Shown: positions 5,675 to 42,608 of the stretch, in pieces | How the letters are laid out: each line of letters begins with the position of its first letter | Numbering within the stretch: the first letter of the stretch is position 1 | Assembly (NCBI GenBank): GCA_025936755.1 | Contig: JAICSS010000003.1 | Span: 44,272 to 108,271, forward strand | Source of the DNA: Solirubrobacterales bacterium | Lineage (GTDB): Bacteria; Actinomycetota; Thermoleophilia; Solirubrobacterales; 70-9 | Reading direction: 5' to 3' | DNA: 64,000 nt | Translations under genes and position numbers: made by a program | Notes under the pieces: model-generated | Seen by the model: only the letters and a program-made list of their open reading frames with translations | The model's database searches: none | Told to the model about the DNA's origin: nothing

Positions 5675-5683
5675 AGCCTTATC

Positions 5684-5712
5684 GACGCCCCCGCGAGGCA
5701 CGCGGGGGCGTC
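5684..5712. terminator. Bidirectional stem-loop between convergent genes
   Basis: Perfect 12-bp stem GACGCCCCCGCG / CGCGGGGGCGTC with a 5-nt loop, lying between the stops at 5674 and 5726. Confidence 0.5.
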
Positions 5713-5725
5713 GCCTTCATCTCCG

Positions 5726-6095
5726 CTAGCCGTCGACCAGGCGGTAGCCGATGCCCCAGCAGTTGACAACGAAGCGGTTGCCCTCGGGGTCGAGTTTGAG
5801 GCGCAGGCGGCTGGCGTGGGAGTCGAGGGTGCGGGTCTTGGAAGGGCCGCGGTAGGCCCAGACCGCATCCAGGAGCTCTTCCTTCGTATAGACCCGGAGG
5901 GGATCCGAGGCGAGGACGCGGAGGAGGGCGAACTCCTTCTTCGCGAGGTGGACCTCGCGATCGCCCACCGTGACCCGGCGGCGCAGCGGGTCGATCACGA
6001 GATCGCCGACGCGGGTGGGCCCTTCGTTGGGTTCCGTGCGGCGCCTGAGGACGGCGCCGATGCGGGCGCGCAGCTCGCCGTAGACGAACGGCTTG
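5726..6095 (-). pseudogene. OmpR-family response regulator, 3' fragment (end of receiver plus winged-helix DNA-binding domain), cut off by the integrated element
   Basis: Begins ...KPFVYGELRARIGAVLRRR, then a Trans_reg_C domain (LAKKEFALLRVL, RTLDSHASRLRLKL, VNCWGIGYRLV). It has no receiver domain of its own. The TTG start in the ORF track lies in element DNA. Confidence 0.85.
6087..6095. repeat. attL crossover core
   Basis: AACGGCTTG, identical to 11787-11795. The bases immediately flanking each copy differ. Confidence 0.8.
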
Positions 6096-6098
6096 CCT

Positions 6099-6149
6099 TT
6101 CAATCATTTGTTTGGCCCCATCCCAATCAGCGACCCAGAGCCAAAATAA
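6099..6149 (+). repeat. Copy 1 of a 51-nt repeat that would encode the alternative recombinase C-terminus after excision
   Basis: In frame with the recombinase across a reconstructed attP: ...NGL PFNHLFGPIPISDPEPK stop. About 80% identical to 7082-7132. Confidence 0.7.
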
Positions 6150-6225
6150 GCTGCTCGTAGCTCCTGCCTCGCACAATGCGGAAGTCCCCGGTCGCTTGGG
6201 CGAGTCGCAACGGTAGCCTCGCCGA

Positions 6226-7068
6226 GTGGCTAGCGACCGCTTTGAATTCCCCGAGACGTTCGATTCCGAACTTGAGATCGGCGACCTGCCCGGCAACAAG
6301 GCGTTCTTCGGCCGCGATGTTCTCGGCGGACTGGTCGGCGGTATCGACGACTACATGCGCCAGCGCCAGGAGCGGTGGAGGCGGCGAGGGTATCGGTCGA
6401 TGGGGCCGGGCCTCCTTGGCACGGCTATGTGGATGGACGATCCCGAGTTCATCGACAAGCTGACCGAACTCTCAGGAGCCTGCGTGGTCGTCACGAAGCA
6501 ACCGAGATCGAAGCGGGACCTTGAGAAGTTCGAGCGCCTGGCGGCACTTAACGAGCAAACCCCAGGGCTTCGCGTCGCAGCGTTCCCCGCCCTCAGCGAC
6601 CTTGCACCCAAGGTAGACGGCAAGCCCCGACTCGTCGGACCATACGACCAAATCGGCGAGGATTCGATACCTACCATCCGCGCGCTCGGATTCCGGCGCA
6701 AGGGGAACCCGCTCGTTCCGATCATGCACGCCAAGCTGGCGATCCTCGGCGAGTTCTGGTGGTACGACGAAGGGGCTCTCGGCGAGGTTGGCGACTTCTA
6801 CGGCTTCACTCCGGCGCGGCTGTGGGTCTCTTCAGCGAACTTCACCCGCCAGTCCCGGCGAAGCCTTGAGTTCGGCTACTGGACCGAGAATGAGGGACTC
6901 CGCGAAGCGGCTTATAGATTCGTTCTGCAGGCGATTCGGTTTTCGGAGTCGCTGGATTCCGCTGCGGACGCGCTTGATCCTGAGTTTGTACCGATCGAGT
7001 TCGATGACGCCGCCATGCTCGAAGCGATCGCCGACATGGAGTTCGAGGACGAGGACTTGGACGAGTAA
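6226..7068 (+). CDS. PLD-superfamily (single HKD-like) putative nuclease with an acidic C-terminal tail
   Basis: IMHAKLAILG (HxK) followed, after an insert, by LWVSSANFT (GSxN-like). Tail is EFEDEDLDE. Only one HKD-like motif, so a dimer would be needed as in Nuc/BfiI. Confidence 0.55.
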   Translation: MASDRFEFPETFDSELEIGDLPGNKAFFGRDVLGGLVGGIDDYMRQRQERWRRRGYRSMGPGLLGTAMWMDDPEFIDKLTELSGACVVVTKQPRSKRDLEKFERLAALNEQTPGLRVAAFPALSDLAPKVDGKPRLVGPYDQIGEDSIPTIRALGFRRKGNPLVPIMHAKLAILGEFWWYDEGALGEVGDFYGFTPARLWVSSANFTRQSRRSLEFGYWTENEGLREAAYRFVLQAIRFSESLDSAADALDPEFVPIEFDDAAMLEAIADMEFEDEDLDE

Positions 7069-7081
7069 TGCGCCCTCGTCC

Positions 7082-7132
7082 TTCTGGCAATTGTTTGGAC
7101 CGATCCCAATCAGCAACGCAGAGCCGAAATAG
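7082..7132 (+). repeat. Copy 2 of the recombinase-tail repeat (relic)
   Basis: Would encode FWQLFGPIPISNAEPK stop. From TTG onward it differs from copy 1 at 6 positions: 3 synonymous, 1 stop-to-stop, 2 non-synonymous. Confidence 0.65.
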
Positions 7133-7248
7133 GCCGCTTTAGGCAGATTCCCCGAATCTGCCTACACCTCCCTTCCTTCCTTTACTCACCCATCAAGCAA
7201 ACCGAGGCCCCTCCGGTGGGGGGGGAAGTTCTCCGCTTCCTCCACGCT

Positions 7249-7283
7249 GTTGGTCCCATGCCGTGACCTAAAGGCAGAAAGAC
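7249..7283. repeat. Left copy of a 35-bp inverted repeat
   Basis: GTTGGTCCCATGCCGTGACCTAAAGGCAGAAAGAC equals the reverse complement of 9683-9717 at 34 of 35 positions. Confidence 0.85.
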
Positions 7284-7302
7284 CTCCGGTCCCTCGTAAA
7301 CC

Positions 7303-7432
7303 CCGAAGCCGCCTCGCTTCCCTGGGCCCCCGCGCTCCTTGCATCTGACCCCGGTCGATCACGAATAGTGAGCGGGTGGGGTCAGATGCAAGGAGCGCCC
7401 TCATTTGGCCCAGGGAAGCGAGGCGGCTTCGG
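7303..7432. repeat. 130-nt long imperfect palindrome (21-bp plus 26-bp perfect stems)
   Basis: Left arm 7303-7352 pairs with right arm 7378-7432. Inner stem GCGCTCCTTGCATCTGACCCC / GGGGTCAGATGCAAGGAGCGC. Outer stem CCGAAGCCGCCTCGCTTCCCTGGGCC / GGCCCAGGGAAGCGAGGCGGCTTCGG. Confidence 0.85.
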
Positions 7433-7519
7433 ACGCTGCAATCGCAGCCCTGTTCGCAGCCTCCCGCGCTTCTTGAAATGCAACCCCGAAAAGTGGCCGA
7501 GCTCCAATAGGCTGCGCCG

Positions 7520-7723
7520 ATGCCCGAGGACGCGAAACGCCAGGCTGCCGCCGAAGCTGTGAAGGCAGTTCAGAAGGAGTTCCTGCGGCAGACGTCCGAA
7601 GCTCGGGCGACTCGCCGCAAGGTCTTCAAAGAAGCTAGGGAGGCGGGGTTGAACCTGCGGGAGATTGGCGAGTTGGCCGGTATCCATCACACGACGGTCG
7701 GCGAAATCATTCGGGGAGGATGA
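7520..7723 (+). CDS. Small helix-turn-helix protein (candidate regulator or recombination directionality factor)
   Basis: 67 aa. C-terminal LNLREIGELAGIHHTTVGEIIRGG resembles a Hin/resolvase-type HTH. Lies inside the element. Confidence 0.55.
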   Translation: MPEDAKRQAAAEAVKAVQKEFLRQTSEARATRRKVFKEAREAGLNLREIGELAGIHHTTVGEIIRGG

Positions 7724-7837
7724 TTTTGGAGGGTTAACCCTCCAAAGCTGCTACGGTAGCGGCGACCAAGAGAAGCGGCCCCCGGCGGTGCGGAAACACC
7801 AACCGGGAGCCTGACCACAAGGAGATGCATCCTCCTC

Positions 7838-8191
7838 ATGGCTAGAGACAACGATATGGGCGGCGGGTCGCTGGTGCCTCTTGACCTTCCCCCGCAGCAC
7901 ATCCCGATCCTGCGCGAACGTCTGACGACCTGGCTGGACGGCGTTCGGGAGGATCTGGAAGCCGTCGACGAGGCACAGGGACTCGATCAGGCCTGGCAGG
8001 AAGCGCGGGCATTTGAGCGGTTGCTAACCGCTCTTGCGACGGGGAAGATTTGCCTTCCCGACGAAGCGGCCAGGACGGCGCTCGAGGTCTCGGCAGCTGC
8101 GCATGACAAGGAGAGCGACTACGCGGACGTAGCTGCAACTCACGATGCGCTTCATGCCCTGCTTGACGCATTGGGGGGTGCCCGCGCTTGA
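7838..8191 (+). CDS. Hypothetical all-helical protein (element cargo)
   Basis: 117-aa ORF. Its stop overlaps the next start. No recognisable motif. Confidence 0.45.
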   Translation: MARDNDMGGGSLVPLDLPPQHIPILRERLTTWLDGVREDLEAVDEAQGLDQAWQEARAFERLLTALATGKICLPDEAARTALEVSAAAHDKESDYADVAATHDALHALLDALGGARA

Positions 8192-8436
8192 TCGCCACCG
8201 ACTTGCGGCTGCAACGGGTCGTGCTGGCACTTGTTCTCCGAGAACATCCGGCAGTTCTTTCGCTGCCGGCGCTGGCCGGCCAGGTTCTCGCGGACCCTCG
8301 CGCCCTCACCGGCAAGGTGGCTCTTGCCCGCGCCCTCCGCGACCTGGACAACGAGGGCTTGGTGTTCAGTGACGGCTCGCATATGCAGCCGAGCCGACCG
8401 GCTATCTACGTCAAGCGTCTGCTGGGGGCCTGCTGA
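8188..8436 (+). CDS. Hypothetical small protein, possibly winged-helix
   Basis: 82 aa. The pattern LQRVVLALVLREHP...ALRDLDNEGLVFSDG resembles a wHTH. Overlapping start and stop codons on both sides. Confidence 0.45.
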   Translation: MIATDLRLQRVVLALVLREHPAVLSLPALAGQVLADPRALTGKVALARALRDLDNEGLVFSDGSHMQPSRPAIYVKRLLGAC

Positions 8437-8924
8437 TGTTGGTTCCGGGGCGCTTCAGCAGCGCCGCGATCAACATCGGCGAGGGCGAGTTGGAGGTCCG
8501 TCTGAGCGACGGCGGCAATTGGCGAGTTCAGGTGCGCTCCACCGATGGGGAAGACTGGCGGCTGCTCTGCCGGGGCCACATTGACGGCACCATCTTTGAG
8601 ACTGCCGGGGCTGACGATGAAGCGCCGATCATGGTCGGCCCGCTACGGGTCGATCCAGCGGCCCGCTGCGTCGAAGTTCACGGCGCTCCGGTGTGCTTGA
8701 CGGCGCGGGAGTTTGAGTTGGTGGCGCTACTTGCTACGGACCCCGGCCGCGTCTTCACCAAGGACGAGTTGTTGCGGGAGGTCTGGAAGCACAGGGCTGG
8801 CGGCAGCAGTCGCACCCTTGACTCACATGCCAGCCGCGTCCGCAACAAACTCCGCAAAGCCGGGGCCGACGGCTTCATAGTCAACTGCTGGCGCGTCGGC
8901 TACATGCTTTGCGGAGATCGCTAG
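8436..8924 (+). CDS. Receiver-less OmpR/PhoB-type winged-helix DNA-binding protein with an unknown 60-aa N-terminal domain
   Basis: LTAREFELVALLA, RTLDSHASRVRNKL and FIVNCWRVGYML form a Trans_reg_C domain. No Asp-pocket receiver motifs upstream of it. Confidence 0.8.
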   Translation: MLVPGRFSSAAINIGEGELEVRLSDGGNWRVQVRSTDGEDWRLLCRGHIDGTIFETAGADDEAPIMVGPLRVDPAARCVEVHGAPVCLTAREFELVALLATDPGRVFTKDELLREVWKHRAGGSSRTLDSHASRVRNKLRKAGADGFIVNCWRVGYMLCGDR

Positions 8925-8967
8925 CTATTTGCATAGCAATTTGATCTGAGGGTGGACCGTTTCGGTC

Positions 8968-9441
8968 TTGAGCATCGTCTTAGGGGTCGATGCTCAAAGG
9001 ATTGAACGGATGCCCGACGGATCGAACGAAATCTATGCGGACGTTGCCGCCCAGCGCAGGCAATTTGCCGTACTCCTGGCGCAGCTACGCGCCGCCGAGC
9101 CGCGTTTCGCGGAAGCGTCGATCCTGCTGCCCAATGAGTATGGCGAGTGGCATGCGGCTGTCTACCTCCTGATTGGTTGCGGGCCGGTCTGGGACAGACT
9201 TGGCCCCCCGATAGTCGCGCAGTGTTCGCTTTCGCCTGTCTTTGAAGAGATGGAAAGCGCTCGGCGTCGCTGGACGAAAGACCAGCGCGCAGCGATGGAA
9301 TGGGCGCTGCACTTCTGGAGGCCGGACAAATACGCGGCCAGCTTTCCGGAGGCGTTCGGGGCGTTCATGTTCACCCGGTGGATCGTCGCCTTGCATCTAC
9401 AGAAGGGTCTCGTTCCGAGGATTCGCATAGATCGGGGCTGA
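8968..9441 (+). CDS. Hypothetical protein (element cargo)
   Basis: 157-aa ORF with coding-like composition and no recognisable motif. Confidence 0.45.
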   Translation: MSIVLGVDAQRIERMPDGSNEIYADVAAQRRQFAVLLAQLRAAEPRFAEASILLPNEYGEWHAAVYLLIGCGPVWDRLGPPIVAQCSLSPVFEEMESARRRWTKDQRAAMEWALHFWRPDKYAASFPEAFGAFMFTRWIVALHLQKGLVPRIRIDRG

Positions 9442-9682
9442 ACCGTGTATGCCGTGCGCTCCCGCCGACCCACCCAGCAAATAGCGCTGCGCCGCTCGGC
9501 AGTCAAGGGCGCGATGCGCCCGACCCCTTTAGGGGTTGACGGCCGAGCGGCGCGGCGCTTCGCTGGCAGGTAGGTCGGCGGCGGTGAAAAAAGGGTCAGC
9601 AGGTTCACTTTGGCCGGGGTGCTAGGCGAACGCCATTAGCGCAATCGGAACCATCACGACGAAAGTAACGATCTTGATCGTT

Positions 9683-9717
9683 GTCTTTCTGCCTTTAGGT
9701 CACGGCATGTGACCAAC
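9683..9717. repeat. Right copy of the 35-bp inverted repeat
   Basis: GTCTTTCTGCCTTTAGGTCACGGCATGTGACCAAC. Contains the internal palindrome GGTCAC-N5-GTGACC. Confidence 0.85.
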
Positions 9718-9719
9718 AG

Positions 9720-9882
9720 TGTCGGAACCAATAGAGAATGTCACCACTTGTTTTCGGTATGTGTAGTGAGAAAAAAATGTGTAGAAAGTTAGGGTGTGTG
9801 TGATTAGTCCAGAAACTTATTCCGCAAAGTGATCTACTTCCCTTTGTATGAAAAGGGAGAACCAACAACAAGTAGGTGAAGT
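9720..9882 (+). promoter_or_regulatory. AT-rich regulatory island upstream of the RHH-like ORF and the recombinase
   Basis: GC is far below the window average. Direct repeat ATGTGTAG at 9759-9766 and 9777-9784, followed by a GTGTGTGTG run. Confidence 0.3.
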
Positions 9883-10179
9883 ATGGAAAGCAGGGAGAAA
9901 CAACAACAAGGAGGAGATAAGCCACTGGTCGCATCCTTCAAGGACTGCGACTCATCAGCCTCGCCGCCACATACCGTCCGGCTGGAGATCATTCCCACGC
10001 ACAGGCAATACATGCAGCTCTGCAATGACCTACGCGAGCTGCGCCGACGCGGGGCCGAGACCAACACGGTCGCCATCATCGACGCGGTTCACGCCGCCAC
10101 TTCGCATAAGATCGAGGCTAGAACTTATAAACGGGCCGAGGGGCGTATGCGCGCCCCCCGGCCCCGCAACAGGAGGTAA
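9883..10179 (+). CDS. Putative ribbon-helix-helix-like small protein upstream of the recombinase
   Basis: TVRLEIIPTHRQYMQLCNDLRELRRRGAETNTVAIIDAVHAA fits a strand-helix-helix pattern. Its stop lies within the recombinase RBS (AGGAGGTAA). Start codon is uncertain. Confidence 0.35.
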   Translation: MESREKQQQGGDKPLVASFKDCDSSASPPHTVRLEIIPTHRQYMQLCNDLRELRRRGAETNTVAIIDAVHAATSHKIEARTYKRAEGRMRAPRPRNRR

Positions 10180-10184
10180 GTCCT

Positions 10185-11804
10185 GTGCCTGATAACCGTA
10201 GCGACCTCGCCATTCTCTACGCGGCGAAGTCAACGAAAGACGAGAAGGGAAGCATCCCCACGCAGCTAGGGGACACGGAGATTGCTGCGCTCGCGGAAGG
10301 CCGCGCTATTGCCGAGCGCTATGCCGACGAGAACGAGAGCGCCTATCACGGCAACCGTGGCCCCAAACTTGAAGCTGCGCTAGATCACGCGGAGCGGATC
10401 GGAGCCGAGCTTTGGGTCCAACACTCCGACCGGCTCGCCCGCGGCGACGGCGTGAAGGCCCGCCATCTTGTCCAGCTTGTCTTTGAGGCCAAGGCTCGCG
10501 GTATCCGCCTGCGCTCGGTCGAAGACGATGCCTCGCTCGAAAACGTGGTGATGGCGGCGGTGATGGGCGAGCGCAACACCGAGGATTCCCGCCGAAAGGC
10601 GGCGGCGGTGAAAGCCGGTATGGAGCGCAAGCGCCAGCGTGGCGAATACATCGGCCACCGCCCCTACGGCTACAAGTGGGAGCGTGATGAGAAGGATGAT
10701 CGCCAGATCGTTCCCGACCCCGTCCAAGCCCCGCTCATCCGGCGCATCTTCAAGGAATACCTTGCGGGTGAATCTCAGAAGGCAATCGCCCGCAATCTCA
10801 CTCGGGACAACGTGCAGACCCCGCGCGGGGGAACTCGGTGGTATCCCGGAACCGTCCGTCAAATCCTGGCCCGCCCGCTCTATGCGGGCTGGATTCCCGA
10901 CGGGAAAGACGGAGTCCTAGAGGGCAACCATGAGCCGCTAATCACCCGCGAGGAATGGGAACAAACGGAAGACTTGCGAAAGGCAAAAGCTCGCGGTCCT
11001 GGTCGTGGTCGGCCTGTGGCGGGGCGGCACCTTTTCCGCAAGGGCTTCCTTCGTTGCGGGGCCTGCGGCGGCGCTCTAATTCCTCGGACGATCCCCAATC
11101 GAGCAAATCCGCCCCGTGAAGTCTATGAATGCTTCACCCGGCATTGCGACCTTGACGGGTGTTCGCAGGAGCCGATCCTGCGCGTCGAAATCGACGGCGC
11201 AGTCCTCGGCTACTTTGAGCAAGTCGGGCTCGACTTGGACGCTACGCGGGACGAACTGGCGGCAGCGATGGACAGAAAGATCGAAGAGACCCGAGCCCTT
11301 CTGAGGGCGGCCCAAAAGGACGCGGCGACCGCTGCCGATCGACTCGCCCGCGTCAAGAGCGACTACCTGAGCGGCGAGTTGACCGCTGCCGAGTGGCGGG
11401 AGTTGCGAGCGGAGCTTGAGCCCAGCACCGTCGCCGCCTCTGCAGAGGTGGAGCGCCTAGCCGAGCAACTTCAGACTCACGAAAGCGACGGCGCCGTTGA
11501 GGTCGCGGAGCGCGAGGTATATGACTTGCTTCGGCAGATTCGGGAGACCGTGACCGGCTCGGCGGCGGATACCGCAGGAGCCCAGGCGGTGAGCGCGACG
11601 CTTCTTCGACTCTTCGACCACTTCACGTACCACGTAGGGATTCCCGAGCGGGCAAATGTCGAGTTGGTCGAAGCTCATAGCTGGATCGAGCCGACGATCA
11701 AGCCCGACCCGATTCACGGCCGCGACGATGAAGATTTCCCCCTCCCGTCCCGCGAACCGCTTGGCCAAGCCGCAAACAAAGGGCACAACGGCTTGGTGAG
11801 GTAA
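10185..11804 (+). CDS. Large serine recombinase (integrase)
   Basis: Resolvase catalytic domain (AILYAAKSTKDEKGSIPTQ, HSDRLARG), recombinase domain, zinc ribbon CGACGG...C...C, and a coiled coil. GTG start with AGGAGG. The last 3 codons and the stop lie in host DNA beyond the att core. Confidence 0.92.
   Translation: MPDNRSDLAILYAAKSTKDEKGSIPTQLGDTEIAALAEGRAIAERYADENESAYHGNRGPKLEAALDHAERIGAELWVQHSDRLARGDGVKARHLVQLVFEAKARGIRLRSVEDDASLENVVMAAVMGERNTEDSRRKAAAVKAGMERKRQRGEYIGHRPYGYKWERDEKDDRQIVPDPVQAPLIRRIFKEYLAGESQKAIARNLTRDNVQTPRGGTRWYPGTVRQILARPLYAGWIPDGKDGVLEGNHEPLITREEWEQTEDLRKAKARGPGRGRPVAGRHLFRKGFLRCGACGGALIPRTIPNRANPPREVYECFTRHCDLDGCSQEPILRVEIDGAVLGYFEQVGLDLDATRDELAAAMDRKIEETRALLRAAQKDAATAADRLARVKSDYLSGELTAAEWRELRAELEPSTVAASAEVERLAEQLQTHESDGAVEVAEREVYDLLRQIRETVTGSAADTAGAQAVSATLLRLFDHFTYHVGIPERANVELVEAHSWIEPTIKPDPIHGRDDEDFPLPSREPLGQAANKGHNGLVR
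11787..11795. repeat. attR crossover core
   Basis: AACGGCTTG. It lies inside both the recombinase 3' end and the response-regulator K-P codons on the opposite strand. Confidence 0.8.
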
Positions 11805-12139
11805 TCGTCGGCGCCGGAGTCGAGGCCGCGGACCTTGTCGGTGCCGCCGCCGCGGCCGGTGAGGACGATCACCGGCAGCCGCGGATCGAAGCGGGAGTCG
11901 ACGCCGTCGGCGTCGCGGATCTCGCGCAGGACGTCGAGGCCGGAGGCGTCCGGCAGCGAGAGGTCCAGCAGCAACAGGTCGGGATGGTTGTACCGGCACA
12001 GCCGCAGCGCGTCGGAGGCGCTGGGCGCGGGCATGACGCCGAAGCGATCGGCGGCGAGGTGCTCGCAGAGCAGGTCGAGGGTGACGTGGTCGTCCTCGCA
12101 GACGACGAGGCTGGCTATCTCTTCTCGTTGGGGGAGCAT
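11787..12139 (-). pseudogene. OmpR-family response regulator, 5' fragment (complete receiver domain), interrupted by the element
   Basis: VVCEDD, LLLLDLSLPD, VIVLTGR and ADDYLTKP give every receiver signature. After KP the frame runs into element DNA (LCPLFAAW...). Confidence 0.85.
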
Positions 12140-24299: not shown

Positions 24300-24475
24300 T
24301 TGATTTGGCTGGGCCGGGGACAGGTCTCCTGGCTTCCGGGATCAGGGAGGACGCGCCTTCCCGGGGACGAGGTGTCGCCCCCAGTGGCTGACGCGAAAGC
24401 GCCCGCGAACTCCTCCACCCGGTCACAGTGGCGGGACCACGCCGGACTTGCACCGGACTTCCCTTGACCACCGAC
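24300..24475 (-). promoter_or_regulatory. Cobalamin (B12) riboswitch
   Basis: Minus strand reads GGTGGTCAAGGGAAGTCCGGTGCAAGTCCGGCGTGGTCCCGCCACTGTGACC ... GAAGCCAGGAGACCTGTC (B12 box). It lies directly upstream of the first DUF4430 gene. Confidence 0.8.
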
Positions 24476-24551
24476 CGATATGTACGCGGCGAGTCTACCG
24501 TCGCCGCGGGTTTTGGCGCCGGGGCTCCCGGCGCCGCTCTGACCGCGGCCG

Positions 24552-35460: not shown

Positions 35461-36693
35461 ATGGCCTATCGCCGCATCCTCGCCCAGCCCAACGTCCTCG
35501 CCCTCTGCGTCGCCTCGGTGCTGGCGCGGCTCCCGGTCGGGATGGGGTCGGTGGCGCTGGTGATCTTCCTCCACGACCGCACCGGCTCCTTCGGCGTCGC
35601 CGGCCTCGCCGCCGGCGCCTTCACGATCGGCCTCGGCGCCACCTCGCCGCTGCTCGGGCGGCTGGTCGACCGGCGCGGGCCGCGGCCGGTGATCGTCCCC
35701 GCCGCCCTGGTCACGGCGCTCGCCCTCGTCCTCCTCGTCGTCCTCGCCGAAGCCGGCGCCGGGACCGCCGCGCTGGTCGCCGTCTCCGGCCTCGCCGGGG
35801 GCTCGACGCCGCCGATCGGCGGCCTCCTGCGCCGGCTCTGGCCGCGGCTGGTCGGCGAGGGCGACATCGTCGGCGGCTACGTGATCGACTCGCTGCTGAT
35901 CGAGATCTTCTTCGTCGCCGGCCCGCTGCTGACCGGCGTGATGGCCGCCGTCGCCGGCTCCGCCTCCCCCCTCTTCGCCGCCGCCGGCCTCGGCTTCCTC
36001 GGCGCCGTCTGGTTCGCCGCCGTCCCCGCCGTCGGCGCGGTCGAGCGCTCCCCGGCCGAGCACCGCACCCGCGCCGGCGCCCTCGCCTCGCCGGCGATCC
36101 GCCTCCTCGTCTTCACCGGGGTACCGATCGGAATCAGCTTCGGCGTCTTCGACGTCATCTATCCCGCCTTCGGCTCCGACCACGGCAACTCCGCCCTCGG
36201 CGGCCCCTTCATCGCCGCCACCGCGATCGGCTCCGCGGTCGGCGCGCTCGTCTACGGCTCCCAGGCCCACCGCTTCCGCACCCCCGCCCAGGGCTCGATC
36301 GCGCTGGCGATCTACCAGCCGCTCGCCTGCCTCCCCCTCCTCCTCGCCGACTCCAGCCTGGCGATGCTCCTGCTCGCCCCGATCGCCGGCAGCTACATCG
36401 CCCCCGCCACCAACCTCCGCAACCAGATCGCCCAGGCGGCGATGCCGCCCGGCACCGGTACCGAAGCCTTCACCTGGCTGGCCCTATCGCTGACCGTCGG
36501 CGCCAGCGCTGGCGCCGCCCTGGCCGGACCTCTGGTCCAGCGCAGCGGCTGGCACGCCGGCGCGCTCCTCGCCGCCGCCCTGCCGGCGCTCTGGCTGCCG
36601 CTGATCCTGCTCCGCCGCGAGCTGCTGCACCGGGCGGCCCGGCCGGACCTCGCCGGCGGCGGGCCGCGGACTAGGGGAACTCGCCGTGGGTAA
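35461..36693 (+). CDS. MFS transporter
   Basis: 12-TM pattern with GRLVDRRGPR loop motif. I prefer the ATG at 35461 over the track start at 35362. Confidence 0.8.
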   Translation: MAYRRILAQPNVLALCVASVLARLPVGMGSVALVIFLHDRTGSFGVAGLAAGAFTIGLGATSPLLGRLVDRRGPRPVIVPAALVTALALVLLVVLAEAGAGTAALVAVSGLAGGSTPPIGGLLRRLWPRLVGEGDIVGGYVIDSLLIEIFFVAGPLLTGVMAAVAGSASPLFAAAGLGFLGAVWFAAVPAVGAVERSPAEHRTRAGALASPAIRLLVFTGVPIGISFGVFDVIYPAFGSDHGNSALGGPFIAATAIGSAVGALVYGSQAHRFRTPAQGSIALAIYQPLACLPLLLADSSLAMLLLAPIAGSYIAPATNLRNQIAQAAMPPGTGTEAFTWLALSLTVGASAGAALAGPLVQRSGWHAGALLAAALPALWLPLILLRRELLHRAARPDLAGGGPRTRGTRRG

Positions 36694-37354
36694 GGATGCG
36701 CAGGTCGTCGCGGAAACGCTCTTTCAGCGCCTGCTGGAATTCCTGCGCCCGTTCGACGTCGCGGATGTCCACCAGGACGCGGCCGTGGCGGTCGCCCAGC
36801 TGGTCGACCTCGCGCTCTCCCAGCAGCTTCTCCGTCGCCGCCAGAGTCTCCTCGACCCCTGCCACCCGCTGGCTCACCACCCGCGGGGGGGTTCCCGGGG
36901 CCACGCCCCAGAAATGCCCTGCGTCGCGGAAGCTCCTCGGGCTGGCCGGGTCCTTCAGCCAGGCGACGAACGCCGGGTGCCCGACGATCCGTTTGATCTC
37001 CATCTCGAAGACACGGTCGGTTTTCTCCCGCGCCTCGGAACCCTCCGAGCTCGCGGTCGAGGCCTCGGCCAGGCCCTTCGGGGTGAGCCGGTAGGTGCGG
37101 GGGCGCACCCGCTCCAGCAGGCCGGAGCCGACGATCCCCTGGTTGCCTTTGCCGCGGCTGTCCAGCTCGCGGTGGATGCGGTTCGAATCGGGGTACTCCC
37201 GCTCGTAGCCCCTCAACCCCCAGGAGGTACGGTCGCTCATCCAGGCGGCAACCAGCAGTTCCTCGGAGGAGAACGTCTTACGCAGGTCCCCGTCGCTGCA
37301 GGCGAGTGCGGCGCGGAGGAGCTGCTGGCGGAGGTCGGTCTTTTTCGCGGCCAT
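36671..37354 (-). CDS. Hypothetical protein, third gene of the HARE-HTH/GHKL-like operon (possible winged-helix N-terminus)
   Basis: ATG at 37352-37354 forms an ATGA overlap with the upstream stop. GLLERVRPRTYRLTPKGL resembles a wHTH wing. No other motif recognised. Confidence 0.6.
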   Translation of the reverse strand: MAAKKTDLRQQLLRAALACSDGDLRKTFSSEELLVAAWMSDRTSWGLRGYEREYPDSNRIHRELDSRGKGNQGIVGSGLLERVRPRTYRLTPKGLAEASTASSEGSEAREKTDRVFEMEIKRIVGHPAFVAWLKDPASPRSFRDAGHFWGVAPGTPPRVVSQRVAGVEETLAATEKLLGEREVDQLGDRHGRVLVDIRDVERAQEFQQALKERFRDDLRILTHGEFP

Positions 37355-39687
37355 CACGGAAGCTCGCCCCCGGCGATGACGTAGTCCTGCAGCTCGCTCC
37401 ACATCTGCTGGACGGTGTGGACCTGATGGCGGTCGAGGGCGAGTTTGTGCTCTGCCCAGTAGCCCTGGCGCTCGTCGTCGCCCTTGCGGGTGAACTCGTC
37501 CTGCATCAGGACCTGGGTGACCATGTCCATCACTTTCTGGACGTGGAAGTGGCGCCACAGGGTGGAGTCTTCGGCGCGCTGGCGGAAGGCGAAGGAAGCC
37601 TCGGCGCTCTGCAGGTTCAGCCACCAGACGCTGTGCTCGAAGTCGCTCACCTCCTGCCAGAGGGAAGGCTGGTCAGGGTCGCCTTCGCGGACCGCGTCGG
37701 TGGCCGGGTCGAGATCGCGGCCGGTCAGCAGCAGGCGCGGGAAGCCGCTTCCCCGCTCCGGCTCCTCCTCGCCGCGGACGACCTGGACCTCGACCGGAAT
37801 GCGGGCCCAGACGCCGCCCGCGGCCGGGTCGCCCGCCCCCGCCGTGACAAGCGTCGAGCCGAGCCGGTTGCCGACCACCCAACCGCTGGGACGGATGCGG
37901 ACGATCATCTGGTCTTCCGCGTCGTGGCTCCAGTCCAGGTAGACGTCGGTCGCCCGTTCTCCCTGGTCGTTGGTCACCTCGGCGACGATCTGTTGCCGCT
38001 TGCCCAGGGGAAGGTCGATTCCGCGCGGAGTAAGGAGGACGTGGTCGACCGTCCACACCTCGACCGGCACGCGCGGAGATTCCACTTCCCCGCCGGAGGC
38101 AGAGGCCCAGACCTCGGTCCGGCCCGCCGACTTCGGCGCCAGCAGCCCCGAGCCGTCGATCGCCGCCACCGCCGGCTCTGCAACGTGCCATTCGAGCTGG
38201 CAGCCCGGGACGGTGCGGCCGGCCGGGTCCTTGACGGTGGCCGCCAGGATCCGCTTCAGGTGGAGGTTCACCCCCAGCGCTACCCGCAGGGCCGGGTCCG
38301 GGACGGTCAGCTCGATGCTGTCGGCTTCGCTACCGTAGTCGGGCGGAGGCGGCGGCGGTTCGCCGTCTTCCCCTCCTCCCCCTTTGCCGGTCGGCGTCTC
38401 GCCGGCGCCGTCTTCGATCAGGAACCGGTTCTTGAACTCGTTCAGCTTGCGGTTCTCCTCGTAGACCTCGTCGAGCGACTGTTCGTCGAGGTCCTCGCGC
38501 CGGCGCTGGTTGATCTCGCGGGCCAGCTCCTTGATCTTCTCGCTGGCGAAGCGGTCGACGGCCTCCACCAGCGGGCCGTCCTTCGGCCGGCGCCGGCCGT
38601 GGTCGACGTACCCGGGCTCCAGCGCCGGCAGCTCGATCGTGCCGTAGATGAAGTGGGCCCCGGGCGTGTTCGGGGCCAGGTCGGAGATCCGTTTCGAGCC
38701 GACCATCTGGTGGGTGGTGCGATAGGTCATCTTCCAGCGGGGGCGCAGGTTCTTGTACGCGTAGTACATGTGCTCGCTGGAGGTGAAGAGGAGCAGGCGG
38801 CCCTTCGGGCGGGCGCCGTTCTCGGTGGTGGAGACGACCTGCCCGTCGGTCAGCGGCAGCTCCTCGGGAATCGGGTGGACGAACGGGCCCTCCAGCTCCG
38901 GATACGGCGGGATCTCCGGAAGCCGGAGCGGCTTGCCGTCCTCCAGCGCCGCGCCGTTGTGCATCGCGTAGATCCGGACCTGCTGGAGCGCCAGCGTCGA
39001 CTGGTCGTGGCGCACGGTCCTGCGGATCAGCTCCTCGGCGTCGATCTGGCCGTTGTAGAACTCCAGCGGCTCGGTGCCCTCGACGAGGGTGAAGGCATTG
39101 CGCCTCAGGATCGCCTCGAGCGCCTCGGGTGGAAGGTCCTGCGGGTCGAGGCCGTAGGGCTCCAGCGCCCGCTGCAGCTCCACCTCCACCACGGCGATCG
39201 GCACCTCGCGGCCGGAGGCCGCGTCGGGAACGAAACCGGGCGTGCCGCGCTCGACCGTCCCCTCTCTGCCCTCGAACCCCTTCGAGTTGCGCTTCCCGTC
39301 GCGGACGCCAACGATCCGTGCGGGCCCCTTGAACAGCCGGTACATGTAGGCCTTGCCGCCGTTGCCCTGGGTCTGCTCCTCGTTGCCCGCGCTGGAGCGC
39401 GAGGAGGCGTCGGGGTCCTGCCAGGTGCTCCAGGCGGTGACGTCCTCGACCGTAGCGCCGCCGACGTCGAGCAGCCCGATCCGGGCCGGCCCGGCGGGGT
39501 TGGCGTCGTTGAGAAGAAGCACCGCGCAACGGTCCTCCTCGGCGACCGCGGCACGGTCGGCTTGGTAGGCCCGGCGCACGTTCTTCAGCCACTCGGCGAG
39601 ACCCTCGTCGTGGCTGGAGATCCAGCGGGTGACGGCGATGAGGGTGCCCTGCTCGTGGAAGCGGATCGTCTCGTCGCGCTCGATCAC
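37354..39687 (-). CDS. Large cytoplasmic protein: GHKL/Bergerat-like N-terminal region, two Big_2 Ig-like domains, helical C-terminal domain
   Basis: Weak GHKL-like motifs EWLKNVRRAY, LLDVGGATV and QGNGGKAYMY. Clear Big_2 patterns (LEWHVAEPAVAAIDGSGLLAPKSAGRTEVWASA, and LPLGKRQQIVAEVTND...GSTLVTAGAG). GTG at 39685-39687 overlaps the upstream stop (GTGA). No signal peptide. Confidence 0.7.
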   Translation of the reverse strand: MIERDETIRFHEQGTLIAVTRWISSHDEGLAEWLKNVRRAYQADRAAVAEEDRCAVLLLNDANPAGPARIGLLDVGGATVEDVTAWSTWQDPDASSRSSAGNEEQTQGNGGKAYMYRLFKGPARIVGVRDGKRNSKGFEGREGTVERGTPGFVPDAASGREVPIAVVEVELQRALEPYGLDPQDLPPEALEAILRRNAFTLVEGTEPLEFYNGQIDAEELIRRTVRHDQSTLALQQVRIYAMHNGAALEDGKPLRLPEIPPYPELEGPFVHPIPEELPLTDGQVVSTTENGARPKGRLLLFTSSEHMYYAYKNLRPRWKMTYRTTHQMVGSKRISDLAPNTPGAHFIYGTIELPALEPGYVDHGRRRPKDGPLVEAVDRFASEKIKELAREINQRRREDLDEQSLDEVYEENRKLNEFKNRFLIEDGAGETPTGKGGGGEDGEPPPPPPDYGSEADSIELTVPDPALRVALGVNLHLKRILAATVKDPAGRTVPGCQLEWHVAEPAVAAIDGSGLLAPKSAGRTEVWASASGGEVESPRVPVEVWTVDHVLLTPRGIDLPLGKRQQIVAEVTNDQGERATDVYLDWSHDAEDQMIVRIRPSGWVVGNRLGSTLVTAGAGDPAAGGVWARIPVEVQVVRGEEEPERGSGFPRLLLTGRDLDPATDAVREGDPDQPSLWQEVSDFEHSVWWLNLQSAEASFAFRQRAEDSTLWRHFHVQKVMDMVTQVLMQDEFTRKGDDERQGYWAEHKLALDRHQVHTVQQMWSELQDYVIAGGELP

Positions 39688-40178
39688 CTGGACCCACCCC
39701 CGCTGTTCGAGCGGCCGCGGACGCGGCGCCGGGTGGCGGGCGCCGTCGGGACCGGCAGGTTCCACTCCGCCAGCCCGTAGATCCCCCGGCTCGGCCGCAC
39801 GATCAGGGGGTCGCGCGAGAGGTGGGCGATGACGTTGGCCGCTTTGCCCTGGCCGGGGACCCGGACCCCGCGGGCGTGCAGACGGTCCATCAGTTCCGAG
39901 ATGTGCAGCGGCCGGCCGGCCTCCTTGAGCTCCTTGACCACCTCGCGGACGACCGGGTGCGTGGGGGCGGCGGGGGTCTCGGCGCCGGCGTCCGCGTCGC
40001 GACCTCCTCCCCTGCGCACGCGCAGCAGCTGCCGGATCAGATCGGCTTCGCTCTTCGCTTCCTCCATCTCCCGCACCTTCGTCGCGATCTGTTCCTCCAG
40101 CGCGGACACCCGCGCCAGGGAGGCGTCCAGCGCCGCCTGGAGATCCCTTTTGTTGAGCGGCCCCCGTCCATCTTCCAT
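39684..40178 (-). CDS. Coiled-coil protein with a C-terminal HARE-HTH winged-helix domain
   Basis: VVREVVKELKEAGRPLHISELMDRLHARGVRVPGQGKAANVIAHLSRDPLIVRPSRGIYGLAEW matches the HARE-HTH (RpoE delta N-terminal-like) pattern. Confidence 0.7.
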   Translation of the reverse strand: MEDGRGPLNKRDLQAALDASLARVSALEEQIATKVREMEEAKSEADLIRQLLRVRRGGGRDADAGAETPAAPTHPVVREVVKELKEAGRPLHISELMDRLHARGVRVPGQGKAANVIAHLSRDPLIVRPSRGIYGLAEWNLPVPTAPATRRRVRGRSNSGGGSR

Positions 40179-40425
40179 AACTAGGAATCTAGCATAGCTA
40201 GAACACGTTGTTACAGATTTTGTAGCGAGGCTATGGAAGGGGGCTCCATTCCCTGCCGAAGACGGGGGCGACCAGGAGCCGACCCCCGGTTGGAAGGCAC
40301 CGGCGCCGGGCGAGCCTGCAGCCCGGGCGACCGCTACCCCTACCGACCCCGGTCACCCTGTCTTACGAGCCCCTCGAGGAACCCCTGCCCGAAGTCTGCT
40401 GCTGAAAGGAACCCTGAACCTGGAG

Positions 40426-40498
40426 TACCGCTACGGGGATTCGAACCCCGGTTTCCGGACTGAGAATCCGGCGTCCTAGTCCCCTAGACGATAGCGGC
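40426..40498 (-). tRNA. tRNA-Glu (anticodon CUC)
   Basis: Minus strand reads GCCGCTATCGTCTAGGGGACTAGGACGCCGGATTCTCAGTCCGGAAACCGGGGTTCGAATCCCCGTAGCGGTA. Cloverleaf folds by hand with a G1-U72 wobble. CCA is not encoded. Confidence 0.85.
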
Positions 40499-40614: not shown

Positions 40615-40698
40615 GCGGCTGTGGCGGAACTGGTAGACGCGCACGGTTCAGGTCCGTGTGGGCGAGAGCCCGTGGAGGTTCGACTCCTCTCAGCCGCA
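40615..40698 (+). tRNA. tRNA-Leu (anticodon CAG)
   Basis: GCGGCTG acceptor paired with CAGCCGC, anticodon loop TTCAGGT, long variable arm, T-loop GGTTCGACTCC. Confidence 0.9.
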
Positions 40699-41073
40699 TC
40701 GCAACTTCGACGGCCCGGTCCCTTCGTCGGGAAGGAGGGGGCGGTGGCCGATCGAGCCGCCCCTCGCACTGCCGTCTCTACGCCGCCTTGCGGATGCGCA
40801 GCATCGATACGGCAGCTCCGGTAGCCGTTGCCTTCATGCTCTTCCACCTCCTCCGGTTGGGGGACAAGATGGACTGAAGATATTTGATTAATACGAATTC
40901 TTCAATTTAAGATATGGCATGTTTACCCTTACCGTCCCCTCGCCTCCCGGGCTAGGTTCGAGGTGCCTCAGGGGCCCATGGCCAAGAAGGGCCGCTGAGG
41001 CTTTTTGACAGGGAAAGTCGAGAGCGCCGAAATGCCCTGGGTTGGCATCCGGCGTCAGGAAGAGAGAGCAAAC

Positions 41074-41691
41074 ATGGCACGACGCCACGAAGCGATCGTC
41101 GGCGACGAGAAATCGCCCGGGGAAGTCCTCAGGCACCCGTTGCGGGTGCGGATCCTCGCCGCCTGCACGGAGCGGGAGACGACGATCAGGGAATTCGCCG
41201 AACGGGCGAAGGTGCGGGAGTCCAAGGCGGCCTACCACTTCCGCATCCTCCTGCGAGAGGGGTACGTCAAGGTCGTCCGCAAGGAGCCGGTGCGGGGCTT
41301 CCGCCGACATGTCTACGCAGCGACCCGGCTGGGCCTGATCAGCGACCGGGAATTCGCGGAGCTCGCGGCCGAAGAGCAGCGCCGGGTCAGCTCGGCGGTG
41401 ATCAAGACCTTCCACGGGCGTTGCCTGGTGGCGTTGCAGGCCGACACCTTCGACTCCCGCGGCGACAGCCACTTCACCTGGGCCCCGAGGGTCTTCGACG
41501 AGCAGGGATGGAAGGACCAGATGGAGGACCTGCTGAAAAGCTACGAGCGATCGGACCAGATCGAGGCTGAATCGAAAGCACGGCTGCGGAGGAGCCGCGA
41601 GGAGGGCATCCCTACAACCATCGCCCTGGCCGGCTTCGAGAGCCCGGCGGAGGAGGCCCCGAATTCGGAGCCGCCGCCAGGCGACCGCTAG
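41074..41691 (+). CDS. ArsR-like winged-helix regulator with a C-terminal extension (paralogue family)
   Basis: LRHPLRVRILAAC ... AAYHFRILLREGYVKVV. C-terminal DEQGWKDQ ... IPTTIALAGFESP. ATG at 41074 with a purine-rich RBS. Confidence 0.75.
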   Translation: MARRHEAIVGDEKSPGEVLRHPLRVRILAACTERETTIREFAERAKVRESKAAYHFRILLREGYVKVVRKEPVRGFRRHVYAATRLGLISDREFAELAAEEQRRVSSAVIKTFHGRCLVALQADTFDSRGDSHFTWAPRVFDEQGWKDQMEDLLKSYERSDQIEAESKARLRRSREEGIPTTIALAGFESPAEEAPNSEPPPGDR

Positions 41692-42608
41692 GCAGGCTGG
41701 ACCGTCGGCTCGGTCCGCGACGCCCGGGCCGCGTTGCCGACGATCTCCTCGACGAAGGTCGGGTGGAGCGCCCGGGGCAGGTCGTGGCCCATGCCGTCGA
41801 TCATCTTCAGGCGGGCGCCGGGGATCGCCCTGGCGGTGGCCCGCCCGCCGGAGGGGTTGACGAGGAGGTCGTTCTTGCCGTGGATGACGGCGGCGGGCAG
41901 CTCGAGCCTGCGGAGGTCGGCGGTGCGGTCGCCGGAGGCGGTGATCGCGTGGAGCTGGCGGGCGATCCCGGCCTCGCTGTGGCCGCGGTCGAAGGAGAGG
42001 GCGGCGATCTCGCGGATCCGCTCCTCTTCGAAGGGATAGCCGGGAGAGCCGATCAGCTTGAAGGTCTTGACGACGCGCTCGATCGCCGCCTCGCGCTCGC
42101 GCGGCGGGTTGCCGAGCAGGAGGCCGAAGGTTTTGTAGCTGGGGTGGCCGACGCGGCGGCTGCCGGTGGTCGACATGATCGAGACGATCGAGCGGACCCG
42201 CGCGGGGTCCTCGATCGCGGCGGTCTGGACGATCATCCCGCCCATCGAGGCGCCGACCAGGTGGGCGGACCCGATTCCGAGATGGTCCATCAGGCCGAAG
42301 GTGTCGGCCGCCATGTCGCGCAGCAGGTAGGGAGCGGTGCCCCTGCGGCCGACGAGCATGTCGAGGGTGCCGGGCGTGCCGGCGGAGCGGAGCTTGGTCG
42401 AGCGGCCGATGTCGCGGTTGTCGAAGCGGACGACGCGGAAGCCGCGCTCGGCGAGCAACCCGCAGAGCTCCTCGCTCCAGGCGATCATCTGGGTCGCCAG
42501 CCCCATCACCAGCAGCAGCGGCTCACCGTCCGGGTCGCCGATCTCCTGGTAACAGAGCTCGATCCCGTCGTTGACGGGGGCGAACGATTCCTCGCCGAAG
42601 TGATGCAT
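41688..42608 (-). CDS. Alpha/beta-fold hydrolase
   Basis: Nucleophile elbow LVGASMGG, HG oxyanion region LLVMGL, C-terminal GHDLP. Confidence 0.82.
   Translation of the reverse strand: MHHFGEESFAPVNDGIELCYQEIGDPDGEPLLLVMGLATQMIAWSEELCGLLAERGFRVVRFDNRDIGRSTKLRSAGTPGTLDMLVGRRGTAPYLLRDMAADTFGLMDHLGIGSAHLVGASMGGMIVQTAAIEDPARVRSIVSIMSTTGSRRVGHPSYKTFGLLLGNPPREREAAIERVVKTFKLIGSPGYPFEEERIREIAALSFDRGHSEAGIARQLHAITASGDRTADLRRLELPAAVIHGKNDLLVNPSGGRATARAIPGARLKMIDGMGHDLPRALHPTFVEEIVGNAARASRTEPTVQPA

Follow-up and report, generated by a model that had tools for sequence, protein, structure and literature searches.

What kind of system is encoded by three tightly coupled genes whose central product joins a putative ATPase to immunoglobulin (Ig)-like domains inside the cytoplasm? 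The question is raised by an operon at positions 36671-40178 of a 64,000-nucleotide stretch (hereafter the window) of contig JAICSS010000003.1 from a Solirubrobacterales bacterium. A preliminary description of this DNA took the three genes, here called g1, g2 and g3, for a candidate defence or DNA-surveillance system. Our analysis indicates that g2 encodes a predicted GHKL-type ATPase of a new and very divergent family, that g3 is its obligate partner and that the gene upstream of this pair belongs to a swappable slot. All three open reading frames (ORFs) that had been described are found, on the minus strand, as follows.

39684-40178, minus strand: g1, 164 amino acids (aa), ATG start (ORF list)
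37354-39687, minus strand: g2, 777 aa, GTG start, multidomain GHKL ATPase and core component
36671-37354, minus strand: g3, 227 aa from an ATG, N-terminal winged helix, obligate partner of g2

The genes g1 and g2 overlap in a GTGA tetranucleotide, as had been described (GTG at 39687-39685, TGA at 39686-39684). The g2/g3 overlap had been read as ATGA and has to be corrected; the junction reads cc-GTGATGG, giving TGATG with a 1-nucleotide (nt) overlap and an ATG start for the 227-aa product, or GTGA if a GTG start is used. No hydrophobic stretch fitting a signal peptide or a membrane helix occurs in g1, g2 or g3 (maximum 19-residue Kyte-Doolittle mean 1.09), in agreement with the earlier description of g2 as having no signal peptide. 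All three proteins are soluble and the module is cytoplasmic.

The central protein is a predicted GHKL ATPase

In g2 the ATPase comes first, then a coiled coil and a disordered linker, then the two Big_2 domains, and last a helical C-terminal domain; these parts map to the window as follows.

39073-39687, minus strand: g2 aa 1-205, Bergerat (GHKL) ATP-binding domain, from Foldseek and invariant motifs
38578-39072, minus strand: g2 aa 206-370, alpha/beta transducer (S5-like) domain, from Foldseek alignments that span both domains
38422-38577, minus strand: g2 aa 371-422, coiled-coil arm of two long helices (372-396 and 402-421 in the AlphaFold2 (AF2) model)
38323-38421, minus strand: g2 aa 423-455, Gly/Pro-rich disordered linker, with a predicted local distance difference test score (pLDDT) below 50 at 423-448
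37768-38322, minus strand: g2 aa 456-640, two tandem Big_2 Ig-like domains, from the family profile, Foldseek and the Pfam matches of relatives
37357-37767, minus strand: g2 aa 641-777, C-terminal domain of short strands and two long helices (AF2), with invariant W689 and N691

The preliminary description had proposed that the N-terminus of g2 be modelled with AlphaFold and compared by Foldseek with known structures for a GHKL fold. An AF2 model was built on 26 homologues (mean pLDDT 72.7) and is disordered at residues 1-27, in the loop 85-114 and in the linker at 423-448. When this model is compared with the PDB, residues 1 to about 420 are returned as a GHKL ATPase plus transducer fold. The GHKL-type matches, at E values of about 1e-7 to 4e-6 with a probability of 1.00 over 400-490 columns, comprise MORC2 (E 1.2e-7), MORC3, MORC4 (template modelling (TM) score 0.49 on the target), SMCHD1, the Hsp90/Grp94/Trap1 group and GyrB. 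The matches to MORC2, MORC3 and MORC4 support the resemblance to prokaryotic MORC/paraMORC ATPases that had been suggested earlier.

Conservation within the family points in the same direction. In a 34-member alignment that reaches down to 21% identity there are 16 invariant columns, among them E32, K35, N36, D74, G77, G108, G110, K112 and R365; T200 is nearly invariant in this set, and invariant in a separate alignment of 21 N-terminal sequences. The weak GHKL motifs that had been picked out by eye (EWLKN, LLDVGG and QGNGGK) contain the first eight of these residues, so that each of the three holds family-invariant positions. Motif I of g2 is E32-x-x-K35-N36; in the wider family it reads GLPEWxKNSxDAY, which corresponds to the Bergerat ExxxNxxD, the D being replaced by R39 in the clade of the window. 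Motif II is D74-x-G-G77, and takes the form DxGG or, in the wider family (LDFxGM), DFxGM, the canonical form being DxGxG. Motif III, G108-N-G110-G111-K112 (GGHGNGGK in the wider family), lies inside the disordered lid, and its GNGGK core is one that we take to resemble the G-x-G-x-K of HATPase_c_3 proteins. Motif IV, F-T200-L-V, falls on a strand. In the AF2 model the positions of these motifs fit the Bergerat topology of a helix, a strand leading through DxG to a helix, a flexible lid and a strand. On this predicted fold and active site we infer that g2 is an active ATPase, with R365 as a candidate gamma-phosphate sensor, presumably equivalent to the MutL K307/Hsp90 R380 type.

The relationship is not seen at the level of sequence profiles. 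A Pfam scan of the window g2 and of 10 distant relatives gives no GHKL match at threshold, and HATPase_c_3 is the best sub-threshold match in only one of 21 family members (E 0.014). Profile searches of PDB sequences, both with the close-family alignment and with the 21-member N-terminal alignment, return no GHKL match, and hhalign of the N-terminal profile against E. coli MutL places only motif I, on ELVENSLDA, at a probability below 1%. The S5 motif that defines MORC proteins, GhXhhpXXRhl (PMC2292703), is found by regular expression in none of the 34 members. Because sequence methods do not see the relationship and the S5 signature is absent throughout, g2 is filed, on the strength of its modelled fold, as a new and very divergent paraMORC-like GHKL-S5 family and not as MORC proper.

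Ig-like domains and a helical C-terminal domain

Two Big_2 domains had been recognised in g2, which is borne out by the family, by relatives and by structure; the window protein alone gives a weak match in Pfam (E 0.11, 12.9 bits). Relatives of g2 pass the Pfam model, with up to 46.4 bits and over two stretches, and the family profile matches the tandem Big_2 repeats of a teneurin-like protein in the PDB (2.5e-8). Foldseek matches to the Ig part include LigA (1.5e-10), SbsC and Nup210. Conservation within g2 is lowest in the linker and in the first Ig domain, with a mean pairwise identity of 0.44 against 0.64-0.70 elsewhere, whereas the second Big_2 domain is highly conserved (0.70).

The C-terminal domain had been described as helical, and the AF2 model agrees in showing two long helices together with short strands. 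Searches with this domain found no match. By analogy with the C-terminal domains of MutL and Hsp90 it may be a constitutive dimerisation domain.

An obligate winged-helix partner

The model of g3 (AF2, pLDDT 85) shows a winged helix at the N-terminus, then a helical linker, then a second, small alpha/beta module. A wing resembling that of a winged helix-turn-helix (wHTH) protein had been suspected; it is real, being present in the AF2 model as RTYRLTPKG at aa 86-94 and aligned by hhalign with the wing of MukF. Beyond the wing the likeness to MukF is slight: E. coli MukF is matched by hhalign with a probability of 4% over the YRLTPxG wing only, and MukF, the best PDB match in Foldseek, reaches a non-significant E of 0.026-0.042 with a TM score of 0.16-0.29. 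There is no Pfam match and no PDB sequence-profile match to g3, nothing below E 0.4 among the viral models of BFVD, and no evident catalytic motif in the protein. Two catalytic readings of g3 were dropped, one as a Top6A/Spo11-like partner on account of the conserved R86-x-Y88-R89 in the wing, for which neither a Toprim-like domain nor a fold match is present, the other as a PD-(D/E)xK enzyme through the segment YPDSNRIHRELDSRGK, whose predicted secondary structure does not fit.

At least 291 homologues of g3 exist, all of them unannotated. By tblastn, g3 follows g2 immediately wherever the contig reaches that far, and this adjacency, which the preliminary description had suggested checking, holds down to about 25% identity, in an Ensifer plasmid. 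The start of g3 lies between -1 and +5 nt from the stop of g2 in all 27 distinct loci, in the forms ATGA, GTGA, TAATG, TGATG or TAGATG. Such stop/start coupling in 27 of 27 loci is not due to chance. The protein is an obligate partner of g2, and translational coupling gives the two a fixed proportion.

The upstream slot is swappable

The first gene of the operon is of a different standing. In the g1 protein an N-terminal coiled coil (about aa 10-55) is joined by a low-complexity linker to a C-terminal HARE-HTH-type winged helix (aa 74-141), after which comes an Arg-rich tail; its coiled-coil character, noted earlier, is upheld in that this segment matches designed coiled coils. The HARE-HTH domain had been called clear. 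At the level of the family this stands, with seven of 10 homologues matching PF05066 at E ≤0.01 (best 1.3e-5) and precomputed matches in three close homologues (P0392, P0394 and P0402), but the window protein alone falls below the Pfam cut-off (22.9 bits against 25.9, E 1.2e-4), and a search of solved structures with g1 retrieved no HARE-HTH structure. The hidden Markov model searches that had been proposed for the three window proteins thus give a sub-threshold HARE-HTH, a very weak Big_2 and no HATPase_c_3 at threshold.

The g1 family has at least 319 members, several of which apparently share contigs with g2 matches, and in all three homologues whose context was fetched a g2-like gene follows. 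In the sample of genomes and contigs, g1 is present in 10 distinct loci (loci are numbered with the prefix L where they have to be told apart). In five loci its place is taken by a helical protein of about 200 aa with a wHTH-like C-terminal region, for which homology to g1 is not supported (hhalign E 0.09), and in six loci by an AbrB/MazE antitoxin with a VapC PIN toxin. Smaller occupants are a 67-aa zinc-ribbon-like protein, a 63-aa protein resembling ribbon-helix-helix proteins and, in Ensifer, a 75-aa protein. The six MazE-VapC pairs lie as follows.

L003:7277-7980, MazE-VapC in the slot
L016:2611-3252, MazE-VapC in the slot
L022:6188-6832, MazE-VapC in the slot
L031:9295-9957, MazE-VapC in the slot
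L033:6431-7248, MazE-VapC in the slot
L035:9297-9940, MazE-VapC in the slot

These pairs are 20-65 nt upstream of g2, occur in three divergent g2 clades and all belong to one family: the PIN proteins of L016 and L022 are 71% identical, their g2 proteins 52%. The g2 of L016 is 74% identical to that of L006, which has the HARE-HTH gene, so that the slot alternates between the two within one clade. The recurrence of MazE-VapC upstream of g2 suggests a functional link and not a chance co-location. Since the contents of the slot vary across loci and one MazE-VapC family spans divergent g2 clades, the core of the module is the g2-g3 pair. Conservation as a unit, which the preliminary description had proposed to examine for the trio, therefore holds for g2 and g3, g1 being one of several alternative upstream modules.

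Distribution and mobility

At least 362 close relatives of g2 are found in a large protein collection, nearly all of 770-800 aa. Identity of 56-60% is kept across phyla, including Acidobacteriota and Verrucomicrobiota, which implies transfer. An exhaustive profile search adds full-length relatives at 21-29% identity, in which Pfam sees Big_2 only; the at least 554 clusters counted at E ≤1e-30 in a 50%-identity library are a figure inflated by unrelated Big_2 repeat proteins. A scan of one genome per species over 185,579 species yields 28 distinct loci, all in metagenome-assembled genomes (27 MAGs), from Actinomycetota (Thermoleophilia), many Acidobacteriota, Planctomycetota, Verrucomicrobiota and a few Pseudomonadota. 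The module is common to soil bacteria of at least five phyla and to one conjugative plasmid, and its distribution is patchy.

The plasmid copy, the one distant copy found by tblastn, comes from a cultured strain.

59223-62548 of NZ_CP118613.1 (L040): distant full-length pair preceded by a gene for 75 aa, on the conjugative MOBP/MPF_T plasmid pCTYH.Ch1_3 of Ensifer adhaerens CTYH.Ch1 (PWG15_RS36150-36160)

In hhalign its 800-aa protein covers 727 columns of the g2 profile (E 2.4e-99), and its 229-aa protein matches the g3 profile at E 1.4e-15; the two genes overlap by 4 nt, and the pair is about 25% identical to that of the window. Its neighbours are a DNA methyltransferase, an AAA ATPase with a partner gene, a GIY-YIG nuclease, an SOS-response peptidase and LigD.

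Transposases of the IS1595 and IS4 insertion sequence (IS) families interrupt g2 in L021 (L021:6810-10001) and L027 (L027:11545-13079), respectively, and there are frameshift-like breaks of g2 in L012, L026 and L030, which may be long-read assembly errors. The module is horizontally mobile. A tblastn search of 50,697 phage records with g2 gave no match.

A variable tRNA locus in Thermoleophilia

In the window the operon sits beside two tRNA genes, which a scan with Rfam shows to be the only RNA families near it.

40425-40498, minus strand: tRNA-Glu(CTC), context only, 247 bp upstream of the g1 ATG
40615-40698, plus strand: tRNA-Leu(CAG), context only, just beyond tRNA-Glu
40179-40202, minus strand: CTAG-rich palindrome TCTAGC-TAT-GCTAGA-TTCCTAGTT, abutting the g1 ATG

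The distance to tRNA-Glu had been given as about 250 bp, in agreement with the measured value. The low-GC patches that had been described on either side are present but modest, with dips to 0.646 (40-41 kb) and 0.649 (34-35 kb) against 0.69-0.73 within the operon and 0.69-0.74 near the dips.

Three related Thermoleophilia contigs (L008, L009 and L036) have the operon beside the same tRNA-Leu/tRNA-Glu pair. The insert between tRNA and operon amounts to about 0.2 kb in the window, about 0.5 kb in L036, 1.7 kb in L009 and 7.3 kb in L008, and the far side varies too; this tRNA-Leu/Glu locus is a variable hotspot. The divergence of the operon is about that of its flanks in comparison with L009 and L036, whereas the operon of L008, the closest relative of the window, is 91% identical and its flanks 75-82%, which suggests recent exchange at the shared hotspot. 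No convincing att-type direct repeats of a tRNA 3′ end were found around the operon. The L008 insert (L008:2163-9446) encodes a 627-aa AAA_21/SMC_N ATPase that matches the Ppl model of PADLOC (1.5e-34), and a 642-aa ORF with no matches.

Neither a sigma-70 consensus promoter nor a credible terminator is seen at the operon. In DNA so rich in GC, CTAG should be rare. All four Thermoleophilia loci keep the 24 bases that precede the g1 ATG and hold the palindrome, whereas the rest of the spacer is not conserved. The palindrome is a candidate operator together with the -10 region of a leaderless transcript.

Beside tRNA-Leu, on the other side from the operon, lies a gene for a 228-aa ArsR-family HTH protein (41005-41691, plus strand). 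Weak nucleotide similarity to L008, L009 and L036 as far as about 41722-41731 is the sole conservation seen there, and there is no evidence that this protein belongs to the operon.

Gene neighbourhoods

Across loci the neighbours fall into several kinds. Mobile-element genes are represented by serine recombinases, tyrosine integrases with excisionase, transposases, a MobA relaxase and Prim-Pol/AEP primases, and toxin-antitoxin genes by PIN/MazE, HepT/MNT, RelB/YafQ and a DUF3368/UPF0175 pair beside a Uma2-family gene. Conflict-type neighbours are TIR_2, CAP12-PCTIR_TIR, SRA_ScoMcrA, a Ppl-like AAA_21 ATPase, a methyltransferase with Vsr and a PLD-helicase-DUF3427 protein; a DGQHR protein is also present, and Hachiman HamA/HamB matches occur among the pooled neighbour ORFs, not tied to one locus. 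No superfamily 2 (SF2) helicase, restriction-fold or HNH nuclease, or methylase is consistently adjacent, the methyltransferase/Vsr and PLD-helicase genes being sporadic only. Genes of ordinary metabolism or transport make up many of the remaining neighbours.

Among these neighbours, a cysteine-desulfurase-like ORF at L018:14773-16725 is matched by SspA/DndA models (Aminotran_5), which is probably not a matter of defence. A type 2A encapsulin shell protein (SrpI-like) was matched in the same batch of neighbour ORFs, and if the two are adjacent they would be an encapsulin cargo system and not a Dnd/Ssp module.

Comparison with known systems

The preliminary description had found no named system to which the combination belongs, and our searches concur. 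A scan of g1, g2 and g3 with NCBIfam gives nothing, and one with PADLOC-DB v2 (2023) gives noise only (GajB, E 0.026 over 38 residues; ThsB, E 0.045 over 35 residues). Annotation by sequence would leave all three products as hypothetical proteins. In the literature on bacterial MORC and paraMORC proteins and on GHKL and HARE-HTH proteins in defence, no description of this architecture was found, and no phage, housekeeping or named defence family gave a match, the first two having been considered as possible matches earlier. GHKL-S5 proteins in prokaryotic conflict systems are already a known kind (PMC2292703). What is new here is a family that current profiles do not see, in which the Ig-like domains are cytoplasmic, an orphan protein serves as dedicated partner, the upstream slot is modular and no effector is recognisable.

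The best structural matches are MORC proteins (MORC1-4, SMCHD1 and the prokaryotic MORCs of Iyer, Abhiman & Aravind, 2008), which like g2 have a GHKL domain, an S5-type transducer and then a coiled coil, and which share the sporadic, laterally transferred distribution of the module. However, g2 has neither GhXhhpXXRhl nor a HATPase_c_3 match at the Pfam threshold, and no linked SF2 helicase, restriction nuclease or methylase, whereas its C-terminal half, made up of the Big_2 pair and the helical domain, and the obligate g3 are unique to its family. The paraMORC1-5 families are likewise divergent prokaryotic GHKL-S5 ATPases with family-specific C-terminal extensions, patchy spread and conflict contexts (PMC2292703), but they are extended by nuclease, TIR or HxH domains and share their operons with helicases, methylases and Vsr, while the extension of g2 is Ig-like and helical and its partner a winged-helix protein. 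No sequence-level link between g2 and any paraMORC family was found. MutL, together with the Hsp90 and GyrB clamps, offers an analogy: its layout of an ATP-gated GHKL-transducer N-terminus, a flexible low-complexity linker and a separate C-terminal domain is also that of g2, although g2 does not have the endonuclease/dimerisation domain of MutL and has no MutS/MutH context.

The nearest validated case is VcSduA, of Shedu type I-D, an anti-phage protein in which a GHKL ATPase and a clamp-like middle domain are thought to gate the effector (PMC12137116). Unlike g2, VcSduA shows recognisable HATPase_c motifs and is fused to a DUF4263 nuclease of the PD-(D/E)xK type; in g2 there is no nuclease, and PADLOC yields no Shedu match. 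Wadjet and MukBEF provide a functional analogy, as an ATPase ring translationally coupled to small winged-helix subunits (kleisin/KITE), and g3 is weakly MukF-like (E about 0.03, not significant), but g2 is a GHKL and not an SMC/ABC protein, and there is no Toprim nuclease (JetD) here. CapK-CapS(-VapC) similarly combines a GHKL-family protein with a small DNA-binding partner and, in some variants, the VapC PIN nuclease; CapK, however, is a small anti-sigma-factor-type kinase with no transducer and CapS a STAS protein, whereas g2 is a 777-aa MORC-like protein and g3 a winged-helix protein.

What does the module do?

The most likely role of the module is DNA-directed surveillance or restriction of invading phage or plasmid DNA, to which we assign a probability of roughly 0.55. 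In conflict systems, HARE-HTH is seen as a domain that reads modified DNA (PMC10853773); this view, and the DNA-binding type of both partners of g2, make DNA the likely ligand. In the mechanism that we propose, g2 would be held as a dimer by its C-terminal domain, and its N-terminal gates would close on ATP binding to form a clamp around DNA. This would follow MORC, MutL, Hsp90 and GyrB, in which ATP-driven N-terminal dimerisation of a constitutive dimer forms such a clamp. The winged-helix proteins g3 and g1 would recognise the DNA or deliver it, specificity may come from the variable first Ig domain, and the output would be entrapment or silencing, or else the licensing of an effector encoded nearby or elsewhere, for example the VapC nuclease found in place of g1 in some variants. 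With no effector recognisable in the trio, the output must be physical or pass through another protein, and the recurrent VapC module hints at the latter.

Several observations weigh against this reading. No nuclease, helicase, methylase, TIR domain, toxin or other effector is recognisable in g1, g2 or g3 by Pfam, PADLOC, NCBIfam or structure searches. Sequence methods are blind to the GHKL membership itself (Pfam, NCBIfam and PDB profiles are negative and hhalign against MutL stays under 1%), and the AF2 model of g2 is moderate in confidence, its ATP-lid region being disordered. The overall conservation is strong (mean column identity 71%), unlike that of typical fast-evolving sensors, and the Thermoleophilia operon keeps its chromosomal position at 72-91% identity, which is steadier than many defence systems. 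Several loci, including the window, L036 and L037, sit among metabolic genes, and the association with defence islands, as read from the neighbourhoods, is at most suggestive. Of the original proposal, then, the undescribed and conserved module stands, while defence itself is plausible on the evidence of gene neighbourhoods.

An unlikely alternative is that the module serves the element that carries it, as a device of plasmids and integrative elements for DNA organisation, silencing, partition or exclusion, and is not an anti-phage system of the host. It is found on a conjugative plasmid and beside an integrase with excisionase, serine recombinases and a MobA relaxase with an AEP primase, the absence of an effector domain suits a structural or regulatory task, and eukaryotic MORCs compact and silence DNA (PMC2292703). 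Yet the window, L036, L037, L043 and others have no recognisable element genes within 8-10 kb, the Thermoleophilia operon is a stable chromosomal resident, and replication and partition genes are not consistently linked.

A little less probable, and speculative, is that the module is a nuclease-free prokaryotic counterpart of eukaryotic MORC silencing, in which an ATP-gated GHKL ring, loaded by winged-helix and HARE-HTH proteins and tuned by a variable Ig-like domain, would keep incoming phage or plasmid DNA from being expressed or replicated by entrapping it topologically or compacting it.

We think it quite improbable that g2 and g3 form a signalling pair, with g2 as a GHKL-type kinase or ATP-dependent switch that modifies or releases g3 (and g1) and so, much as CapK-CapS does, controls the transcription of stress or immune genes nearby. 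Protein kinases do exist within the GHKL superfamily, g1 and g3 are of DNA-binding type with a conserved palindrome at the start of g1, and MazE-VapC stands directly upstream of g2 in three divergent clades, which recalls CapK-CapS in that the latter regulates adjacent immune operons and has been co-opted with a VapC toxin (PMC13373217). No histidine or anti-sigma kinase, however, is among the best 50 Foldseek matches listed, which on the ATPase side are all of the GHKL-plus-transducer type; moreover CapS is a STAS-domain protein and g3 is not, and there is no conserved downstream operon that might be regulated.

Still harder to sustain is a housekeeping task in DNA repair or chromosome maintenance, as a MutL- or Hsp90-like factor of these soil lineages. 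The syntenic position, a divergence like that of the flanks in L009 and L036, purifying selection along the whole of g2 and a GC content like that of the genome all speak for such a factor, but there are only 28 distinct loci (27 MAGs) over 185,579 species, the cross-phylum identity of 57-60% implies transfer, and the IS-disrupted and frameshifted copies, the plasmid copy and the L008 operon, far closer than its flanks, do not fit. A reading of g2 as a Big_2 adhesin, secreted or on the surface, or as a structural protein of phages, with the operon as a prophage remnant, can practically be dismissed: Big_2 is typical of surface proteins and phage tails, and the Foldseek matches do include S-layer proteins, LigA and a phage virion protein, but g2 has no signal peptide or membrane segment, its N-terminal 420 residues have an ATPase fold, there is no tblastn match among the phage records and no phage genes are nearby.

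Other features of the window

A low-GC stretch at 5000-12000 (0.575-0.66 against about 0.70-0.75) is probably an integrated element. It contains an ArsR-like HTH ORF (5075-5674) similar in type to that at 41005-41691, a 280-aa ORF (6226-7068) with an HxK motif, MHAKLAILG, of PLD/HKD-like type and no PDB sequence match, about 3 kb (7.1-10.1 kb) in which any ORF is shorter than 180 aa, and a 539-aa ORF (10185-11804) resembling a large serine recombinase. A cobalamin riboswitch is found at 24302-24487 on the minus strand (76.5 bits).

Significance for MORC-type ATPases in bacteria

GHKL/MORC-type ATPases have been predicted in bacterial conflict since 2008 and few have been tested; the known ones carry an obvious nuclease, helicase or methylase. 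If the present module, with its DNA-directed surveillance as the preferred reading, does defend cells, its mechanism must be unusual, either entrapment or silencing of DNA or the control of a separate effector such as VapC. Should MORC-like entrapment prove true, it would be a new mechanistic class of bacterial immunity, in which swappable modules (HARE-HTH, the second wHTH protein or MazE-VapC) set the target or the output. The copy on the plasmid of a cultured Ensifer strain makes the module experimentally accessible, and a module that defends cells would offer a simple bacterial model for the recognition of foreign DNA by MORC-type clamps.

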